Shown one piece after another: positions 10,303-21,255 of a stretch of 24,000 nucleotides of DNA. The notes beneath the pieces are model-generated. The model was given only the letters and a program-made list of their open reading frames with translations, did no database searches and was not told the DNA's origin. The DNA lies in contig NZ_JNYQ01000004.1 in NCBI RefSeq assembly GCF_000717245.1, positions 1,144,151 through 1,168,150 on the forward strand. Direction: 5' to 3'. The DNA comes from [Kitasatospora] papulosa. Its GTDB lineage: Bacteria; Actinomycetota; Actinomycetes; Streptomycetales; Streptomycetaceae. The number at the start of each line of letters is the position of its first letter. Position 1 is the first letter of the stretch. Both the position numbers and the translations under genes were made by a program.

Positions 10303-10989
10303 ATGCGGGTGCTGCGAAACATCGCATCGGGCGCCATCGCCTCGCTGCTCCTCCTCGTCGGGCTGACACCCGCGGCCGCCCACGCCGACCCCGGCGACCA
10401 TGGCCGCCCCGCGACCCACTGCCCGACGGACGCCCGTACACGCGGGACCAACGGAGCACCCACCACACCCCTGGAGGAGTACTACCTCGACGACTGGCGG
10501 CTCGGTCCACAGGTCCTGCCGAGGACCGGCGCCATCGGGGCGATGCTGCGTGACTACCACCGCACCGGCCCGACCTCCGCGTACTGGTTCCTCGGCTGCT
10601 ACTGGCAGACCAACCCGACCAGCGGCGAGTCCGGCTGGTGGTACCCGGACCACGACGGCTTCGTACTCGACCGCGCGGGCAACCCGGTGAAGAAGAACCT
10701 GACGCTCCGCGTGGGACAGCTGGTCGACCTCTTCGGCAGCGGACGCGGCAACTTCCTCGCCCCCGCAGGGACCCCGTACGCCAAGCGCGCCATCCCGCCG
10801 AGCAACCTCGTCACCTACACGACCGACTACCCGAACAGCTACCACCTGTACCGGGTCACGGAGGCGTTCACCGTCGAGGCCGGCCGCATCCGCCCCTGGT
10901 TCGGGCAGCCCGGTCTGGGGATCCAGTACAAGACGGACCAGCGGGTCTCGGAACTGGTCAACGCCGAGAAACTCGAAGCCCTGAACTGA
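10303..10989 (+). CDS. Secreted TNT-domain (tuberculosis-necrotizing-toxin-like, DUF4237) putative NAD+ glycohydrolase
   Basis: ATG 10303 is preceded by GAGAAGGGA. Signal peptide MRVLRNIASGAIASLLLLVGLTPAAAHA, with cleavage predicted before DP. The C-terminal half is ...GQLVDLFGSGRGNFLAPAGTPYAKRAIPPSNL...YHLYRVTEAFTVEAGRIRPWFGQPGLGIQYK. This matches the TNT/NADase signature as I remember it (DRFG..G.F..P.GTP...R.LPP....Y..Y.V......G.IAPWFGQPGGG.QY). Confidence 0.75.
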   Translation: MRVLRNIASGAIASLLLLVGLTPAAAHADPGDHGRPATHCPTDARTRGTNGAPTTPLEEYYLDDWRLGPQVLPRTGAIGAMLRDYHRTGPTSAYWFLGCYWQTNPTSGESGWWYPDHDGFVLDRAGNPVKKNLTLRVGQLVDLFGSGRGNFLAPAGTPYAKRAIPPSNLVTYTTDYPNSYHLYRVTEAFTVEAGRIRPWFGQPGLGIQYKTDQRVSELVNAEKLEALN

Positions 10990-11004
10990 TCACGACCGCA
11001 CTCC

Positions 11005-11039
11005 CCTGGGCGGGCCCGGCACGACCGGGCCCGCCCAGG
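11005..11039 (+). terminator. Perfect 15-bp GC hairpin between the toxin gene and the downstream small ORF (terminator or attenuator)
   Basis: cctgggcgggcccgg (11005-11019), loop cacga, ccgggcccgcccagg (11025-11039). It starts 16 nt after the TGA at 10987-10989 and ends 18 nt before the ATG at 11058. Confidence 0.55.
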
Positions 11040-11057
11040 CGCATGCAAGGGGAACCG

Positions 11058-11423
11058 ATGAACAGGACCGAGCTCACCGAACGGCTCCGCCGCGAGGAGG
11101 TACCGGACGCGCTCTACGAGATCCCGGGAGTCCACGGCGTCCCCGTACAGCTGGACGCTTACTACGTCCTGCGCCCGGAAGGCGACACGTGGCCGGTCCT
11201 GCTGCGCCAGCGGGGCCAGGAGGAAGTCATCGCCCGCTTCGCAACCGAGGCGGAGGCCTGCGACTACCTGTACGACACCCTCACGGACGTCCCCCCACCC
11301 GCCCCCGGCGGCGCGGCCCGCATCGAACGCCTCCTGGCCGACGCCGACGAGATCCAGCGCCAGGCGGAGGAGGACTTCGAACGCGCCCCGGACCGGGAGG
11401 ACGGCGGGACTGGGGGTGTCTGA
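11058..11423 (+). CDS. Small acidic cytoplasmic protein (121 aa); candidate cognate immunity protein for the TNT-like toxin
   Basis: ATG 11058 with AAGGGGA 5-6 nt upstream; ATG 11043 is an alternative. GC3 is very high. No signal peptide or transmembrane segment, and the composition is rich in Glu and Asp. The immunity role is inferred from position only. Confidence 0.7.
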   Translation: MNRTELTERLRREEVPDALYEIPGVHGVPVQLDAYYVLRPEGDTWPVLLRQRGQEEVIARFATEAEACDYLYDTLTDVPPPAPGGAARIERLLADADEIQRQAEEDFERAPDREDGGTGGV

Positions 11424-11498: not shown

Positions 11499-13052
11499 CT
11501 ATGCGACCTCGATGCCGTACTCCCGCAGCAAGGCCCCCAACCCGTCGGGGTATCCCCTTCCTCCCGACACGAACTCCCAGTCACCGGAACCCCGCAGTCT
11601 GAACGAGCCGAGGACCAGCGCCACCTCCCCCGCCCTGCCGTCGGACACCTCCAGTCGGTCGAGCTCCACGCCCCGGGCATCCCGCAGCCGGATGCAGGCC
11701 TGCGTGAAACCCGCGAGATCGCCGGAAGGCTCAGCCTCCGGATCCACAGCGGCCACGAGCACCACACGGTCGGCCTCAGCGGGAAGCGCGTCGAACGACA
11801 CACTCAAGGCCGCCCGGTCCTCCGCGAACCCTGGCACAGCCCGCACAGCGCCGTCGGGAGTCCGCGGATTGTTGAAGAAGACGAAGTGGTCATCACTCAG
11901 CACCCGCCCGCCCCGGCACACCAATGCGCACACATCGAGGGCCACGCCGCCCGACCACGTCATACCCAGCACATTGTGTTCACCGGCGGGTTCGCCCTCG
12001 GGCGACGACCGTTGAGCCGGTACCCCGGCCCCGCCAGCACCCGGCAGCCTCCCCCGCAGCCCACAGCGCCCCAGGAGGTCGACCAGCTCCGTACCCGACA
12101 CGAGAGTCAGCGGCTTGCCCTCGGCGAAGGTGTACGAGCCGGGGCCGAAGCCTGACGTCGTCACCAGCACACCCTTGTTGGCCCCAGCTCCCTGGACCGT
12201 GCCGTAGAGATCACGCACGGCACTCGGAGGAACCGTGTTCCGGTAGCGCTTCACCTGGACGATGATCTTGCCGCCGCTGATCGGGTCCGGATCCATGGCC
12301 TCGACATCGACACCACCGTCGTTGGAACGCTGCGTGGTCACCGCATGCATCCCTCGCGCCCGGAAGAGCTCGGCGACCAGTCCTTCGAACTCGATGGGAT
12401 CCATCTCCAGCAGATCCGGCTCAGCACCGCCGCCGTGCGACACCGAGCCGGACTCCAGCTCCGCCGGAATCCTGCCCGGCCGGACGGCCAGGCGCTGATC
12501 GGGACGAGCCGACAGCTGTCCTCGCAACGCGCCCGTCAGGCAGTCCACCGCATTCACCTGTTCCAGGTTCAACCCGCCGAACTCCGTCCGCGAGACCATC
12601 GTCGTGCTCAGGCAGACCGACGCCTGGCGCCCAGTCGCCGGATCGATGTCATGCACAAAGCCGTTCAGCGCCACCGACTCCACGACCTCGAACTCGTCCG
12701 CCGCGAAAACGTCCCGCAACACGAGGAGCACGCATTGAGCCAGCACGTCCCGGTAGAGGGCCCTTCGCTGGCCCACGGGCCGCGGCGTCTCCTTCTCCGT
12801 GTCCGAGCCCACCAGATACCGCACGCTCTTCGACTCGGGAACCACCGTGAAGCCCGGCAGCTCCCAGTCCAGTACAAGCTGCCGACCCGCCGGATCGAAC
12901 GCGACGGTCACCTGACGGGGAAACTCCGCCGGCCAGGCCGACGACGAGTACAGCGCAGCCGAGAAGTACTCCACCACAGCACCCGCATCACCTCGTCGCA
13001 GCGCCACCGCCAGCTCGGAGACCCCCGCGTTGTGCCGCCGGATCTCGCTCAA
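11499..13052 (-). CDS. Unknown N-domain + Mrr_cat (PD-(D/E)xK) restriction-endonuclease core + C-terminal TerD-fold domain; in frame with the upstream ORF across a single TAG
   Basis: Mrr_cat lies at about 12069-12410: DPIEFEGLVAELF, NDGGVDVEA (Asp codon 12306-12308), IIVQVKRY (Gln 12255-12257, Lys 12249-12251) and KGVLVTTSGF. The TerD-like domain lies at about 11502-11981: LGMTWSG, LSDDHFVFFNNPRTPDG and the C-terminal GYPDGLGALLREYGIEV. The first codon after the upstream TAG is TTG (13050-13052), and the next in-frame start is GTG (13005-13007). Confidence 0.8.
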   Translation of the reverse strand: MSEIRRHNAGVSELAVALRRGDAGAVVEYFSAALYSSSAWPAEFPRQVTVAFDPAGRQLVLDWELPGFTVVPESKSVRYLVGSDTEKETPRPVGQRRALYRDVLAQCVLLVLRDVFAADEFEVVESVALNGFVHDIDPATGRQASVCLSTTMVSRTEFGGLNLEQVNAVDCLTGALRGQLSARPDQRLAVRPGRIPAELESGSVSHGGGAEPDLLEMDPIEFEGLVAELFRARGMHAVTTQRSNDGGVDVEAMDPDPISGGKIIVQVKRYRNTVPPSAVRDLYGTVQGAGANKGVLVTTSGFGPGSYTFAEGKPLTLVSGTELVDLLGRCGLRGRLPGAGGAGVPAQRSSPEGEPAGEHNVLGMTWSGGVALDVCALVCRGGRVLSDDHFVFFNNPRTPDGAVRAVPGFAEDRAALSVSFDALPAEADRVVLVAAVDPEAEPSGDLAGFTQACIRLRDARGVELDRLEVSDGRAGEVALVLGSFRLRGSGDWEFVSGGRGYPDGLGALLREYGIEVA

Positions 13053-13589
13053 CTACCCCTGCGCCCAGTCGTCGTACTGACGCCGATATGCCGCGAGCTG
13101 CTGCTGTCGCTGCGCCTCCGCCGCCTGCGCGGCCCGCCAGTCCTGCTGGTACCTCGCGTGCGCCTCCTGCTGAGCCTGAGCCCGCCGTCCGGCGGTCCAG
13201 CCGCCCTGCACCTGGTACCGGTTAACGGCAGGCATGGGTACGGGACAAGCCAGTTGCCCAGGAGCGAACGGCTCGATCTCCTCAGCGCGCCCCAGCGACG
13301 CCGTCCGGAACGCAGACACCCGGGAGCCGGCCGCCAGCAGACCCTCCAGCACACCGACCCGAGCTTCGAGCTCCTCCGTACGGCGTCTCGCGTCCGCCTC
13401 ACGCCTGCGCCGGTACTCGGCCTGCTGCTCCCGGTGCAGCCTCGCCATGTCGCGCTCGTGGGCCCGCTGCAACCGCTCCTGCTCGCGTGCTCCCTGAACG
13501 GCAGCACGATGCTGCGCTTCGTGCTGGCGCTGAAGCTGCCGCTGGGCCTCCGCCCACGCACCGACCAGACCGTTGGACCGACGACTCAT
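13053..13589 (-). CDS. Gln/Arg/Glu/Ala-rich predicted coiled-coil protein (178 aa); probably the N-terminal part of the Mrr/TerD protein, cut off by an in-frame TAG
   Basis: ATG 13587-13589 with GGGGAGAG upstream. The sequence AQRQLQRQHEAQHRAAVQGAREQERLQRAHERDMARLHREQQAEYRRRREADARRRTEELEARV is typical of a coiled coil. The TAG at 13053-13055 is followed directly, in the same frame, by the 517-codon nuclease ORF. Confidence 0.7.
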   Translation of the reverse strand: MSRRSNGLVGAWAEAQRQLQRQHEAQHRAAVQGAREQERLQRAHERDMARLHREQQAEYRRRREADARRRTEELEARVGVLEGLLAAGSRVSAFRTASLGRAEEIEPFAPGQLACPVPMPAVNRYQVQGGWTAGRRAQAQQEAHARYQQDWRAAQAAEAQRQQQLAAYRRQYDDWAQG

Positions 13590-13698: not shown

Positions 13699-13729
13699 AA
13701 AAAACCAGGCCAGCATGATGCTGACCTGG
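13699..13729 (-). terminator. Intrinsic terminator after the tRNA (hairpin plus T6 tract on the minus strand)
   Basis: On the minus strand: CCAGGTCAGCA-TCA-TGCTGGCCTGG (11-bp stem with one G-U pair), followed by TTTTTT. It begins 7 nt after the tRNA 3' end. Confidence 0.7.
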
Positions 13730-13736
13730 CGTTTCG

Positions 13737-13809
13737 AGCCGCCTGTCGGAATCGAACCGACGACCTGGAGCTTACAAGGCAACCGCTCTGCCAACTGAGC
13801 TAAGGCGGC
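13737..13809 (-). tRNA. tRNA-Thr (anticodon UGU), 73 nt, CCA not encoded; the anticodon stem has two adjacent mismatches
   Basis: Minus-strand sequence: GCCGCCT-TA-GCTC-AGTTGGCA-GAGC-G-GTTGC-CTTGTAA-GCTCC-AGGTC-GTCGG-TTCGATT-CCGAC-AGGCGGC-T. The acceptor stem pairs 7/7, the D stem 4/4 and the T stem 5/5, with canonical D and T loops. The anticodon stem pairs only 3/5 (28-42 is U-C, 29-41 is U-U). Confidence 0.8.
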
Positions 13810-13849: not shown

Positions 13850-13964
13850 CACAGCAGCGCGCGCCGCGATCCACGAAGTTTCGCCACCGCCGTGACCCTC
13901 CGACCACCCGTGCGTTAAAAGGACTGACGTGCTGTTCCGTATATCGGACAGTCGGAGGGCGGGC

Positions 13965-15365
13965 ATGACGGACACGGTGGACAAGCCGGTACGGGTGACA
14001 GGCGAAGAGGCGAGACGCATCAAGCGGGAGGCCCTCGGCATCGCCGACCGCAGGACGGACCACGGCAGCACACGCGGGGTTCCGAGAAGTCGGGCCAAGG
14101 AGGCCGGCACGCAGCAGCGTGTGTACCGCTACCGCTTCTACCCGAGCCCGGCACAGGCCGAGCAGCTGGAGAAGACCTTCGGGGCCTGCCGTTGGGTCTA
14201 CAACGAGGCGCTGACCCTGCGTGTCGGCGCCTGGGAGCAGCATCGCGTGTCGGTGGGGTTCGCCGAGTCGTGCCGTGCGTTGACGGGGTGGCGGCAGGCG
14301 TCAGGGACGAGCTGGCTGCGGGAGGTGTCGTCGACGGTGCTGCAGCAGTCACTACGTCATCTGGACGGAGCGTTCACACGCTTCTTCAAGCAGTCGGCGA
14401 AGTATCCGCAGCGGAAGACGAAGCGCCGCTCGCGGAACTCGGCGACGTACGTGCGCACCGGATTCCGCTGGGTGGACGACCCCGAACTGCCGGGCACGGG
14501 GCGGCTGACGCTGGCGAAGCAGTCGGAGCCGCTCGACGTGCGGTGGTCGCGACCGCTGCCGGAGGGTGCGGACCCGGTGAAACTGTCGGTGACACGAGAC
14601 CGGGCGGGGCGCCATTTCGTCTCGGTGCTGGTGGAGGAGCGGATCCAGCCGTTGCCTGCCGCGTTCCTGCCAGGTGGGCATGAGCCGAGGGCGGTGGGGA
14701 TCGACCTGGGTCTGGCGGCGCTGGTGGCGCTGGACGACGGGACGAAGATTGATCATCCGCGCCTGATGCGGAAGTACGGGAAGGAACTGGCACGGCTGCA
14801 ACGAGGGCTGCACCGGAAGAAGAAGGGCTCGGCGAACCGGGACAAGGCCCGGGAACGCATCGCTCGGCTGTACGCGCTGATCAGTGACGCGCGCAAGGAC
14901 ATGCTGGACCAGTTGACCACCCGCCTCGTGCGCGAGAACCAAGTGCTCGTCGTGGAGGATCTGGCCATCACGAACCTGCTGCGGCCCGCCACGGGGAGAG
15001 GGCGTCGGCGTAAGGCCGGACTCATCCGCTCGATCAAGGACGCTGCCTGGGGCGAGCTGCTGCGGCAGCTGCGGTACAAGTGCGCGTGGTACGGGCGCAC
15101 GCTGGTGATCGTCGACCGCTTCTTCCCCTCGACACGGCGGTGCGCCGACTGCCATGCCAAGGGGGCGCCCCTCGACGTGTCGGTCCGGGAGTGGTTGTGC
15201 GCGGAGTGCGGCGCGTGGCACGACCGGGATGTGAACGCGGCGCGAAACCTCAGGGAGGAAGGGATGCGGCTCTACCGCCTGGTGTCGTGCGCACTGCCGT
15301 CGGGGCGCGTGCCTCCGCCTGTGATCAAGGCGTCGGAGCTGCCGGCGGTGCTGTCGGCCGCGTGA
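13965..15365 (+). CDS. tnpB: TnpB (OrfB_IS605 family) RNA-guided RuvC nuclease
   Basis: N-terminal RVYRYRFYPSPAQAEQLEKTFGACRWVYNEAL motif. RuvC-I is GIDLG (Asp 14703-14705), RuvC-II is VVVEDL (Glu 14955-14957) and RuvC-III is HDRDVNAARN (Asp 15228-15230). Zinc finger CADC...CAEC. The start is uncertain: ATG 13965 (GGAGGG upstream) is preferred, with GTG 13929 or GTG 13995 possible. Confidence 0.88.
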   Translation: MTDTVDKPVRVTGEEARRIKREALGIADRRTDHGSTRGVPRSRAKEAGTQQRVYRYRFYPSPAQAEQLEKTFGACRWVYNEALTLRVGAWEQHRVSVGFAESCRALTGWRQASGTSWLREVSSTVLQQSLRHLDGAFTRFFKQSAKYPQRKTKRRSRNSATYVRTGFRWVDDPELPGTGRLTLAKQSEPLDVRWSRPLPEGADPVKLSVTRDRAGRHFVSVLVEERIQPLPAAFLPGGHEPRAVGIDLGLAALVALDDGTKIDHPRLMRKYGKELARLQRGLHRKKKGSANRDKARERIARLYALISDARKDMLDQLTTRLVRENQVLVVEDLAITNLLRPATGRGRRRKAGLIRSIKDAAWGELLRQLRYKCAWYGRTLVIVDRFFPSTRRCADCHAKGAPLDVSVREWLCAECGAWHDRDVNAARNLREEGMRLYRLVSCALPSGRVPPPVIKASELPAVLSAA

Positions 15366-20298: not shown

Positions 20299-21255
20299 TC
20301 ACGCCCGGCGGCGTGCCACCTCGTAGAGGACGATGCCGGCGGCGACACCGGCGTTCAGTGATTCGGCACCGCCGGGCATGGAGATCCGGACCCGGTAGTC
20401 GCAGGTCTCGCCGACGAGGCGGCCCAGGCCCTTGCCCTCGCTGCCGATGACGATGACGACGGGGCCGGCGAGGGCCTCCAGGTCCTCGACGGTGTGCTCG
20501 CCGTCCGCCGCGAGGCCGACGACGGTGAGGCCCGCCTTCTGGTAGCCCTCCAGGGCGCGGGTCAGGTTGGTGACGCGCGAGACGGGTGTACGGGCCGCGG
20601 TGCCGGCCGAGGACTTCCACGCTCCGGCGGTCATACCGGCCGCCCGGCGCTCGGGGACGACGACGCCGTGGCCGCCGAAGGCGGAGACGGAGCGGACGAT
20701 CGCGCCGAGGTTGCGGGGGTCGGTGACGCCGTCGAGGGCGACGATCAGCGGGTCCTCGTTGTTGTCGTACGCGGCGGAGGTGAGGTCCTCCGGGTGCGCG
20801 TACTCGTACGGCGGGACCTGGAGGACGAGGCCCTGGTGGTTCAGGCCGTTCGTCATCCGGTCGAGCTCGGGGCGCGGGGCCTCCATGAGGTTGATGTTGC
20901 CGCGCTCGCCGGCGAGCTGGAGGGCCTCGCGGACCCGCTCGTCGTTGTCGATGTACTGCTGGACGTAGAGGGTGGTCGCGGGGACGCCGTCGCGCAGTGC
21001 CTCGAAGACCGGGTTGCGGCCGACGACCATCTCCGACGTGCCCTTGACGCCACCGCGGCGCGGGGCGGGGCGGCGAGCGGCGGCCTGCTTGGCCTGGGCG
21101 TTCGCCACCCTGTTCTTCTTGTGTCCCTTGCGGGCGGAGGCGGGCGGCGTCGGTCCCTTGCCTTCGAGAGCACGGCGTCGGTTACCGCCGCTGCCGACCT
21201 GCATGCCCTTCTTGTTGGACGTGCGGCGGTTCCTGCGCTGGCTGTTCCCGGCCAT
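20299..21255 (-). CDS. rlmB: 23S rRNA (guanosine-2'-O)-methyltransferase RlmB (SpoU/TrmH family)
   Basis: SpoU motifs are present (LIVALDGVTDPRNLGAIVRS, VVIVIGSEGKGL, ISMPGGAESLNAGVAAGIVLYE), with the substrate-binding N-domain (GRNPVFEAL). There is a Lys/Arg-rich N-terminal extension of about 75 aa. The conserved cysS-rlmB gene order is kept. Confidence 0.88.
   Translation of the reverse strand: MAGNSQRRNRRTSNKKGMQVGSGGNRRRALEGKGPTPPASARKGHKKNRVANAQAKQAAARRPAPRRGGVKGTSEMVVGRNPVFEALRDGVPATTLYVQQYIDNDERVREALQLAGERGNINLMEAPRPELDRMTNGLNHQGLVLQVPPYEYAHPEDLTSAAYDNNEDPLIVALDGVTDPRNLGAIVRSVSAFGGHGVVVPERRAAGMTAGAWKSSAGTAARTPVSRVTNLTRALEGYQKAGLTVVGLAADGEHTVEDLEALAGPVVIVIGSEGKGLGRLVGETCDYRVRISMPGGAESLNAGVAAGIVLYEVARRRA

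Follow-up and report, generated by a model that had tools for sequence, protein, structure and literature searches.

An interrupted copy of an Mrr-TerD fusion gene conserved in Streptomyces and Kitasatospora, a candidate solitary restriction-type endonuclease

In the 24,000 nt stretch of [Kitasatospora] papulosa DNA analysed here (contig NZ_JNYQ01000004.1; the window), the minus-strand segment from 13589 to 11499 is best explained as a nonsense allele of a conserved gene for a protein of about 696 aa that is found in Streptomyces and Kitasatospora, joins an Mrr nuclease core to a TerD-like domain and, in its intact form, would be a solitary restriction-type endonuclease. We give this reading a probability of roughly 0.6. 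The first-pass annotation had claimed a single reading frame encoding five parts. The five parts are present in the translation, but the frame is not continuous, as a TAG codon interrupts it and leaves two ORFs, one of 178 and one of 517 aa. A 'read-through product' is mentioned in the text of that annotation and not in its title. The features of the gene are as follows.

13056-13589, minus strand: upstream ORF, codons 1-178, ATG start; N-terminal helical region of the ancestral 696-aa protein
13053-13055, minus strand: in-frame TAG at codon 179, which is CAG (Gln) in the intact allele
11499-13052, minus strand: downstream ORF, 517 codons and stop (11499-11501), opening with TTG at 13050-13052 right after the TAG; runs from the last part of helix 2 through the middle domain and Mrr core to the linker and TerD-like domain
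13344-13571, minus strand: long helix 1, aa 7-82, in which Arg, Glu, Gln and Ala are abundant (AlphaFold2, pLDDT 80-91)
12996-13193, minus strand: long helix 2, aa 133-198, containing the stop codon (AlphaFold2 secondary structure)
12414-12995, minus strand: middle domain, conserved alpha/beta, aa 199-392 (conservation; no Pfam or NCBIfam match)
12072-12410, minus strand: Mrr_cat PD-(D/E)xK core, aa 394-506 (Pfam PF04471, E=1e-31)
12384-12386, 12306-12308, 12255-12257 and 12249-12251, minus strand: catalytic Glu402, Asp428, Gln445 and Lys447, respectively
11976-12053, minus strand: Gly/Pro/Ala-rich linker, about aa 513-538, predicted disordered
11502-11975, minus strand: C-terminal TerD-fold beta-sandwich, aa 539-696 (Pfam PF02342, E=4.3e-21)

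Origin of the stop codon

The stop, Q179*, results from a single C-to-T change at window position 13055, and the corresponding residue is Gln in 35/50 and Arg in 11/50 homologues. An intact 696-aa allele that is 99% identical and lies in the same context was found in a sister strain (locus L081), where nucleotide identity to the window is 98.9-99.4%. The two alleles are distinguished by 10 synonymous and 4 non-synonymous differences, which is comparable to neighbouring genes, and all 14 are confined to a 717-nt tract, with the remainder of the gene identical, including all 1,374 nt that follow codon 239. One of the 14 is D121A, which alters a residue conserved as Asp in 48/50 homologues. So small a number of differences rules out a long-decayed pseudogene.

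The gene is intact at 79/80 species-level loci, indicating that the window copy, which was seen in one assembly, is a recent nonsense allele. The cluster at 90% identity has 42 members, nearly all of 696 aa (WP_400757018.1 is an example of the intact protein), and includes one other, differently split copy. A cluster look-up recorded the exact 178-aa product from one contig only, while an exact look-up for contigs encoding it returned none. Independently disrupted alleles were found in the window, at L033, which has its own stop, and in a S. pratensis genome. Most likely, to judge from these sequences, the window copy is a recent, strain-specific nonsense allele in which the stop inactivates the gene. 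At best, the stop would leave a 517-aa product without most of the helical region.

An error in sequencing or assembly, in a strain that in fact carries the intact 696-aa gene, would also account for a single-base difference confined to one assembly, and the other members of the 90% identity cluster that were read are intact, save for the one that is differently split. However, stop-creating substitution errors are uncommon in modern assemblies, the 717-nt tract includes 13 other genuine-looking differences, D121A among them, and the independent stop in L033 indicates that such alleles do arise; we regard an error as very unlikely. It is also quite unlikely that the gene survives its stop by restarting at the TTG to give a functional 517-aa protein, perhaps together with a 178-aa helical protein. 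The TTG follows the TAG directly and a purine-rich CAGGGG precedes the TAG, plasmid-borne homologues align only from query residue 181-201 on, and clusters of 363-416 aa (P0209, P0159 and P0220) cover only residues 144-515. Nevertheless, the TTG is Leu180 of the intact gene and its position is thus coincidental, and as the stop lies inside helix 2 the 517-aa product would begin in the middle of a helix. The complete identity to the intact allele downstream of codon 239 is consistent with a restart, but is equally explained by a recent mutation. A recent nonsense allele remains our preferred explanation of the stop.

Domains of the 696-aa protein

The Mrr_cat assignment made in the first-pass annotation was borne out by the profile search, in which PF04471 scored 109.9 bits (cut-off 21) over profile positions 2-115 of 115. 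The domain spans aa 215-327 in the numbering of the 517-aa ORF and aa 394-506 in that of the full frame. The active-site motif of the Mrr family consists of a helix Glu, an Asp and Gln/Glu-x-Lys. Here, E402, D428, Q445 and K447 are all present in the window and invariant across 50 homologues, and the Asp, Gln and Lys codons had been located correctly from the sequence. The core, with the D...QxK variant of the active site, is common to E. coli Mrr, ScoA3Mrr/SCO4213, BanUMrr, ZmoMrr and Rv2528c.

With Foldseek, the AlphaFold2 model of the whole protein matched MspJI and AspBHI, both of which contain a nuclease (E=4e-6 to 6e-5, 307-398 alignment columns, rmsd 16-21 A). These enzymes have a similar layout, with a recognition domain at the N-terminus and a PD-(D/E)xK nuclease at the C-terminus. 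However, the middle domain on its own matches neither MspJI/AspBHI nor an SRA-like domain, and only the nuclease core is therefore shared. The pTM of the model is 0.49, so contacts between domains in it are not reliable.

At the C-terminus, the TerD assignment also held. PF02342 matched at 75.7 bits (cut-off 25.3) over profile positions 37-187 of 187, phmmer aligned the domain to the solved structures 3IBZ (2.5e-16) and 2KXT (7.7e-15) with a shortened loop, and Foldseek returned 3IBZ (E=1e-11, TM 0.68 normalised to the target). Klebsiella TerD (2KXT), the S. coelicolor TerD-like protein 3IBZ and SCO6318 (2QZ7) share both the beta-sandwich fold and the sequence family. As first noted from the letters alone, the Ca-binding loop is replaced. 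In the alignment to solved TerD proteins the canonical acidic Ca2+-binding loop (GDNxTGEGxGDDE) is absent, with the loop HTGDNITGEGEGDDEQ of 3IBZ/2KXT replaced by the shorter RAVPGFAEDRAA. The replacement is 5-6 residues shorter than the canonical loop and differs among homologues except at D591, which is near-invariant. P0131 and P0140, distant relatives that also bear TerD, likewise lack the Ca2+ loop. The linker that precedes this domain has a pLDDT below 50 at residues 517-535 in the AlphaFold2 model and differs in length among homologues.

The first-pass annotation predicted an N-terminal coiled coil. Two long helices are indeed predicted (7-82 and 133-198, at a pLDDT of 80-93 in AlphaFold2), but their heptad pattern is unclear. 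Hydrophobic residues occupy at most 0.375 of the a/d heptad positions in helix 1, which is 41% charged, and at most 0.625 in helix 2. For helix 1, a charged single helix or a helical hairpin may fit these data better than a classical coiled coil.

The middle domain, for which no motif had been recognised, is a genuine conserved alpha/beta domain, with invariant residues among 50 homologues that include W242-E243-L244-P245, R275, R276 and Y279. Profile searches with Pfam and NCBIfam gave no match, nor did a search of PDB sequences, and the domain alone had no significant fold match in PDB (best E=0.025) or BFVD (best E=0.0078). A modified-base reader, SRA-like or other, was considered on account of the MspJI/AspBHI matches of the whole protein and rejected when the middle domain alone matched nothing. 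Its weak fold matches are rich in PD-(D/E)xK proteins (UL24, Cas4-like proteins, exonucleases, DUF2800, Rai1 and 3K93). A degenerate second nuclease fold was nonetheless not supported, as hhalign gave a probability below 1% against the family's own Mrr core, and this is a lead only.

Distribution of the family

More than 2,300 homologues were found at E<=1e-5 and the coding GC3 of the gene is 0.81, which together place the frame and its family beyond what chance would be expected to produce. The protein obtained by reading through the stop matches the PADLOC mREase_IV model PDLC03663 with E=9e-60 over profile positions 22-524 of 544, and the upstream ORF aligns to the model, from profile position 22, once it is joined to the downstream ORF. 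The model thus extends from the helices to the Mrr core, with the middle domain in between, but stops before the TerD-like domain. It carries the label of predicted Type IV (methyl-directed) restriction enzymes; the window copy has a stop codon. The family made up of helices, middle domain and Mrr core is large (803 clusters at E<1e-30) and annotated 'restriction endonuclease', and its members mostly end near query residue 515, without TerD. The middle domain and the Mrr core co-occur in other phyla, and the unit is also carried by plasmids in Methylobacterium, Xanthomonas, Agrobacterium and Clostridium. The same core is joined to HIRAN, FtsK-gamma or TerD in other lineages.

At least 432 species genomes, from Streptomyces and Kitasatospora, carry the fusion to TerD, in every case annotated only 'restriction endonuclease', and homologues across many Streptomyces species share 67-72% identity. 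Precomputed Pfam annotation gives Mrr_cat and TerD for 120/120 among the matches listed. A phage-borne origin was ruled out, as there was no full-length match among 50,697 phage records. The architecture had first been put forward as undescribed. This does not hold for the core, which is modelled in PADLOC, or for the fusion, which is in the Pfam annotation, though no paper characterising an Mrr-TerD fusion experimentally was found in the literature covered, which did not extend to Anantharaman, Iyer and Aravind 2012. Nor did the literature yield a tested member of the PDLC03663 family, for which 'Type IV' is a database label.

Genomic context

The following features flank the gene.

13736-13809, minus strand: tRNA-Thr(TGT) (ARAGORN), directly upstream
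13704-13730, minus strand: terminator-like hairpin and T-run separating the tRNA from the gene (consensus match; 1 site found, 1.0 expected by chance)
13929-15365: TnpB
10303-10989: TNT toxin

The gene is the first downstream of a tRNA, as had been noted, and both are on the same strand. The hairpin suggests that the gene may be transcribed separately from the tRNA. At the syntenic locus L012 the same tRNA is 181 bp upstream of the gene. The first-pass annotation placed the gene in an islet with a TnpB element and a toxin pair, which is partly right; TnpB and a TNT toxin were confirmed in the window. However, TnpB and the TNT pair are missing from L012, and we conclude that the gene was resident first and that they joined it later. 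Other neighbours in the window are GNAT, APH(6), an FAD oxidoreductase, an MsiK-like ATPase, an NTP transferase, DoxX and SpoU, an RNA methylase (20299-21255). These neighbours are shared at just 2 of the 80 loci, L012 and partly L007, which rules out a fixed syntenic core gene. Between window and L012, the protein is only 66% identical, whereas the housekeeping genes on its flanks reach 83-89%. The surroundings vary from clade to clade and often place the gene downstream of tRNA genes, with a tRNA-Arg 0.3-9.7 kb upstream at 26/80 loci. In complete genomes, the gene is mostly in the central part of the chromosome.

The 140 immediate-neighbour slots fell into 102 clusters, all of which were scanned with PADLOC and Pfam; the counts are approximate, as the GC3-based gene caller is crude and mis-called L012. 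About 5 of the 102 are defence-like (mREase_IV, TIR, mad1 twice and NACHT) and 2 are transposases, given as raw counts with no genome-wide background rate. The remainder are mostly ordinary metabolic, transport and regulatory genes. Against the condition that the first-pass annotation set for its own refutation, the outcome is mixed: the gene is not part of a fixed syntenic core, but enrichment of defence genes or mobile elements is unclear from the counts, and a clear defence-island gene is not supported by these scans. No DNA methyltransferase was found near the gene within the window, and the 25 commonest Pfam families across the 102 clusters include none. Similarly, terA, terB, terC, telA and associated biosynthetic genes are absent from the window, and Ter families are absent from the commonest neighbour Pfam families.

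Possible functions of the intact protein

In the reading that we prefer, the intact protein would be a solitary DNA endonuclease of the restriction type that has no partner methyltransferase, as is the case for the Mrr-like Type IV enzymes. The middle domain would supply recognition of DNA or of a target and the helices would mediate self-association, while the TerD-like domain may be a regulatory addition specific to its lineage, serving either to bind a ligand or to dock to other proteins. In other lineages, HIRAN or FtsK-gamma, which are DNA-binding domains, may occupy the same accessory position on the core. The role given to the TerD-like domain is pure inference. E. coli Mrr differs in having an Mrr_N winged-helix DNA-binding domain; none was detected here with Pfam, and the long helices and the middle domain take its place, with the TerD-like domain added at the C-terminus. 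Restriction of modified DNA by Mrr-type enzymes has been described in vivo for E. coli, Bacillus anthracis, S. coelicolor (SCO4213) and Zymomonas (PMC3874153), and E. coli Mrr is reported to be controlled via its oligomeric state and triggered by stress (PMC5435990, PMC3874153). Modified-base readers (Mrr_N winged helix, SRA, PUA, DUF3427 and similar) had no Pfam match in the protein and the middle domain had no fold match in PDB or BFVD. That the middle domain resembles no known modified-base reader counts against the reading that we prefer, as do the lack of the Mrr_N domain and the mostly ordinary immediate neighbours.

A sensor (TerD), oligomerisation and effector (Mrr) arrangement, as first proposed, is a reasonable hypothesis. 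That the TerD-like domain is a true sensor, with a small molecule, a metal or another TerD protein as the cue that switches the Mrr nuclease on or off in a widespread single-chain immunity or stress system of Streptomyces, is unlikely. The Ter system (terZABCDEF), which also has a TerD-family domain, has been tied to phage, colicin and tellurite resistance, and TerD has been proposed to sense a ligand or metal (PMC7824862, PMC4633105). However, that system includes TerA, TerB, TerC, TelA and biosynthetic genes, none of which is in the window, and its TerD proteins are free-standing and have the acidic loop, whereas here the domain is covalently fused to a nuclease and has a shortened, variable loop in which near-invariant D591 is kept. 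A narrower version, in which the domain binds a small molecule such as a nucleoside-like metabolite and Mrr then cuts DNA indiscriminately, as in abortive infection, seems quite improbable. In comparative-genomics papers, TerD has been proposed as a ligand-binding domain, perhaps a sensor of signals derived from nucleotides (PMC7159879, PMC7824862). Conservation of the TerD-like domain is strong, with loss of the Ca2+ loop common to P0131 and P0140, the AlphaFold2 model has a flexible linker between it and the nuclease, and a few loci adjoin TIR, NACHT or mad1 genes. Against this, no signal-producing enzyme was found in the window or in the 25 commonest neighbour Pfam families, most of the family works without TerD, and the ligand is conjecture.

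For a defence gene, moreover, this one is unusually widespread and shows unusually high conservation (67-72% identity; 79/80 intact), which raises the possibility of a housekeeping or developmental nuclease, acting for example in DNA degradation during stress or in the programmed death of old mycelium, with the TerD-like domain tying it to signalling by calcium or stress and to the many TerD proteins that are free-standing in the cell. TerD and TerE are reported to form strong heteromers (PMC4633105). Carriage by at least 432 species genomes, a mostly central chromosomal location and mostly non-defence neighbours point the same way. Still, the position of the gene is not conserved across the genus, while core developmental genes of Streptomyces are usually syntenic. 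Moreover, it evolves faster than flanking housekeeping genes, the independent disrupted alleles (window, L033 and S. pratensis) suggest that it is dispensable, and the core family is found on plasmids in unrelated phyla. We consider a housekeeping or developmental role doubtful, and retain the solitary restriction-type endonuclease as the more probable function.

Significance

The significance of the window alone is small, because the copy in it is broken and the core family had been catalogued before. As the fusion too is catalogued, it is a moderately interesting lead and not a new system. Solitary restriction-type nucleases are a known barrier to the introduction of DNA into Streptomyces, and the broken allele beside intact sister-strain alleles provides a ready natural comparison. 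For decades it has not been clear what TerD proteins do, although they have been linked to resistance against tellurite, colicin and phage. A TerD-nuclease fusion that is intact in hundreds of Streptomyces species would offer a simple read-out for TerD, in the form of DNA cleavage or toxicity, and if the TerD-like domain is a sensor, this would be the first case where the output of TerD could be read directly as DNA cleavage.

An in-frame stop codon in the Mrr-TerD gene

Translation of the minus-strand frame 13589-11499 agreed with its description in the first-pass annotation, except that the single reading frame reported there is not open. An in-frame TAG leaves two ORFs, and the frame and its neighbours are arranged as follows:

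10303-10989, plus strand: secreted TNT-domain protein (tuberculosis necrotizing toxin, NAD+ glycohydrolase type; Pfam E=4.6e-31)
11001-11423, plus strand: small ORF after the TNT gene, called as 121 aa in L081, the locus of the intact allele
13050-13052, minus strand: TTG directly after the TAG, opening the downstream ORF of 517 aa
13053-13055, minus strand: TAG after codon 178 of the frame 13589-11499
13056-13589, minus strand: upstream ORF of 178 aa with an ATG start
13704-13730, minus strand: terminator-like hairpin directly after tRNA-Thr, a 12-bp stem followed by a T-run
13736-13809, minus strand, as the target gene: tRNA-Thr(TGT), located with ARAGORN
13929-15365, plus strand: TnpB (IS200/IS605 OrfB, Cas12f-like), between tRNA-Thr and an MsiK-like ATPase gene

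The codon-position composition of the target frame is that of a real gene (GC1/GC2/GC3 of 0.75/0.51/0.81; surrounding DNA 71.6% GC). A Pfam search upheld the Mrr_cat (E=1e-31) and TerD (E=4.3e-21) assignments made at first pass and added a weaker, overlapping match to NA-iREase1; NCBIfam has no model for the protein. The hairpin sits in the 146-bp gap between tRNA-Thr and the target ATG. No sigma-70-like promoter was found for the gene.

The top match in a protein search was P0001, the 696-aa product of the intact allele at L081 in [Kitasatospora] papulosa, which is 99% identical and has CAG (Gln) at codon 179 where the window has TAG. The accession of the intact 696-aa allele is WP_400757018.1. 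Gene order in L081 is exactly that of the window, TnpB, the TNT toxin pair and the MsiK-like ATPase included, with 98.9-99.4% nucleotide identity. The two alleles differ at 14 bases (10 synonymous, 3 missense and 1 nonsense), a level that resembles that of the neighbouring genes, and one missense change in the window copy, D121A, affects an Asp shared by 48 of 50 homologues. All 14 differences lie within the first 717 nt (window 12873-13535), and the two alleles do not differ over the other 1,374 nt. As the differences are confined in this way, they mark a locally more divergent tract rather than decay, and the stop is recent. The border between the two parts has the look of a recombination or mosaic junction within the gene.

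Intact orthologues were found in 79 of the 80 species-representative loci, and the 90%-identity cluster of the window protein has 42 members, nearly all of 696 aa. The only disrupted copy among the 80, L033:10001-12094 from Streptomyces sp. NPDC088744, has its own in-frame stop at approximately aligned codon 153, in the N-terminal helical region, which is independent of the window's TAG. One S. pratensis genome carries a different split within the same 90% cluster, which may reflect either a frameshift or natural splitting; its 532-aa nuclease part (P0284) is annotated as 'restriction system protein' and its 154-aa free-standing TerD (P0282) as 'stress response protein SCP2'. As intact loci and 696-aa members predominate and split copies are few, the gene is normally kept whole and occasionally lost.

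We conclude, with a probability of about 0.95, that the window carries a nonsense allele belonging to a catalogued Mrr_cat-TerD family. The 178-aa product is recorded from one contig only, and an assembly error at the TAG is one reading of this, though a highly improbable one. It is also improbable, if slightly less so, that the split gene still functions by restarting at the TTG adjoining the TAG.

Parts of the intact protein

An AlphaFold2 model of the intact protein, built from 50 homologues (mean pLDDT 80.6, pTM 0.49), has the following parts:

aa 7-82: long helix 1
aa 133-198: long helix 2
approximately aa 199-392: middle alpha/beta domain
aa 394-508: Mrr core
aa 517-535: disordered Gly/Pro/Ala linker
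aa 539-696: beta-sandwich (TerD part)

The N-terminal region had been read as a coiled coil. Helix 1 is 41% charged and its heptad hydrophobic periodicity is weak, at most 0.375, while that of helix 2 is a little stronger, reaching 0.625. With a weak heptad signal and high charge, a coiled coil is not established, and the region may equally well be a helical hairpin or a charged single helix.

Within the Mrr core, all 50 homologues share Glu402, Asp428, Gln445 and Lys447, and the intact protein is, judging from its sequence, likely to be an active nuclease. Counted within the 517-aa ORF, Asp428 and Lys447 are D249 and K268. The TerD part matched the solved TerD proteins 3IBZ and 2KXT in sequence (2.5e-16 and 7.7e-15) and 3IBZ in fold (Foldseek E=1e-11, TM 0.68). 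Alignment to these two proteins bore out the loss of the Ca2+ loop noted at first pass, the acidic loop GDNITGEGEGDDE of TerD being replaced by a shorter one; the Ca2+ loop is also missing from P0131 and P0140, two distant TerD-bearing relatives.

The middle domain is conserved among homologues and had no Pfam or NCBIfam match and no PDB sequence match. When it was modelled alone (pLDDT 73.9), Foldseek returned nothing significant from the PDB (best E=0.025) or viral models (best E=0.0078). As the domain alone has no significant fold match, the matches of the whole-protein model to MspJI and AspBHI derive from the nuclease core. Its weak fold matches lean to PD-(D/E)xK-fold proteins, and comparison of its profile with the family's own Mrr core was negative; this model-based leaning may be taken as a lead only.

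The wider family

More than 2,310 relatives were found among 5.8 billion proteins. The 120 best are all 620-757 aa long (nearly all 685-717) and carry Mrr_cat and TerD; they come almost entirely from Streptomyces and are named only 'restriction endonuclease'. The 696-aa read-through protein matched the PADLOC model mREase_IV PDLC03663 ('Type IV methyl-directed restriction enzyme') at E=9e-60 over positions 22-524 of 544, a match that spans everything except the TerD part. The family of the nuclease module, predicted Type IV enzymes, is thus already catalogued, and public annotations show the fusion; 'undescribed', as the system had been called, was an overstatement.

HMMER, run exhaustively against 1.84 billion cluster representatives, gave 14,021 matches, of which 803 had E<1e-30. 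The best clusters are mostly 500-590 aa long, end near query residue 515 and lack TerD; the match continues through TerD in only a handful (P0121, P0123, P0124 and P0130), and the more distant P0131 and P0140 also have TerD. The TerD-bearing members with names are from Streptomyces and Kitasatospora, while those without TerD include Nonomuraea and Larkinella (Bacteroidota). In other lineages, the N-terminal DNA-binding domains HIRAN (P0164 and P0216) or FtsK_gamma (P0177) replace or join the long helices on the middle domain and Mrr core, in other phyla too (e.g. Larkinella), which suggests that the family is modular and its accessory domains interchangeable. In P0122, a close relative of 816 aa that is 63% identical over query aa 81-535, the ORF continues past the Mrr core with an XOO_2897-like deaminase toxin domain as well as a SUKH-4 immunity domain. 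Either this is an artefact of gene fusion, or a polymorphic toxin locus has taken in a member of the nuclease family.

The unit of middle domain and Mrr core is plasmid-borne in Methylobacterium, Xanthomonas, Agrobacterium and Clostridium, and full-length copies were found on four Streptomyces or Kitasatospora megaplasmids. No full-length match was found in phage records.

Genomic context

When one genome per species was scanned with six exact peptide patterns, relatives were found in at least 432 genomes, a lower bound because only these six patterns were used. Among 80 loci fetched, the window's neighbours are shared by the syntenic L012, in part by L007, and by no others. In 26 of the 80 (among L004-L077), the orthologue has a tRNA-Arg gene (24 CCT, 2 CCG) 0.3-9.7 kb upstream, oriented the same way. 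The gap holds variable, unrelated genes within a conserved outer frame (clusters 3, 6 and 12 upstream; 1, 2, 4 and 5 downstream), and resembles a hot spot where genes are gained and lost. Other clades have stable blocks of their own, and many loci are unique.

The 140 immediate-neighbour slots fell into 102 clusters, for which PADLOC gave approximately five specific defence matches as a raw count (mREase_IV, TIR, mad1 twice and CARF-like), and Pfam one further NACHT-type protein and two transposases. The others are oxidoreductases, transporters, glycosyl hydrolases and regulators. The check on homologue context proposed at first pass thus came out divided: the gene is not a syntenic core gene, and enrichment near defence genes is not demonstrated. 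Its behaviour is that of a solitary accessory gene: it occupies variable spots, in many cases downstream of a tRNA, and is not demonstrably a defence-island gene. A fixed core gene is ruled out, as the context varies among the 80 loci.

Between the window and L012, the target protein is 66% identical, versus 83-89% for CysS, MsiK, the NTP transferase and SpoU. The TnpB and toxin pair of the islet described at first pass are indeed present; as neither was found in L012, they are later arrivals beside an older resident target gene. TnpB is 97.6% identical between the window and L081, aligned over the first 1021 of 1320 nt only, while the flanking genes exceed 99%. The small ORF at 11001-11423 had no family match and plausibly encodes the immunity protein of the TNT toxin. 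Both genes of the pair converge on the 3' end of the target gene.

Proposed function

In vivo restriction of modified DNA by Mrr-like enzymes is known from several bacteria, S. coelicolor among them (SCO4213; PMC3874153, PMC1934918). We propose that the intact protein would be a stand-alone restriction-type endonuclease, with target recognition by the middle domain and self-association through the long helices. The TerD-like domain would serve as a regulatory addition peculiar to Streptomyces and Kitasatospora, and may no longer bind Ca2+ in the canonical way. We place this whole mechanism just short of even odds; blended with identification of the nonsense allele, our confidence is moderate and on the favourable side.

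Stress reportedly activates E. coli Mrr via tetramer dissociation (PMC5435990). The intact protein might be a developmental or stress nuclease, which we consider unlikely. TerD has been proposed as a ligand-binding sensor, possibly of nucleotide-derived signals (PMC7159879, PMC7824862), and TerD and TerE form heteromers (PMC4633105). A ligand-gated abortive-infection effector seems a little less likely again, and we prefer the stand-alone endonuclease.

Full-text searches turned up no paper characterising a TerD-Mrr fusion; an earlier mention in Anantharaman et al. 2012 is possible. Apart from the stop codon and the coiled coil, the first-pass observation was largely right. The TerD-nuclease combination is uncharacterised yet widespread, and offers a direct way to test what the TerD domain does.
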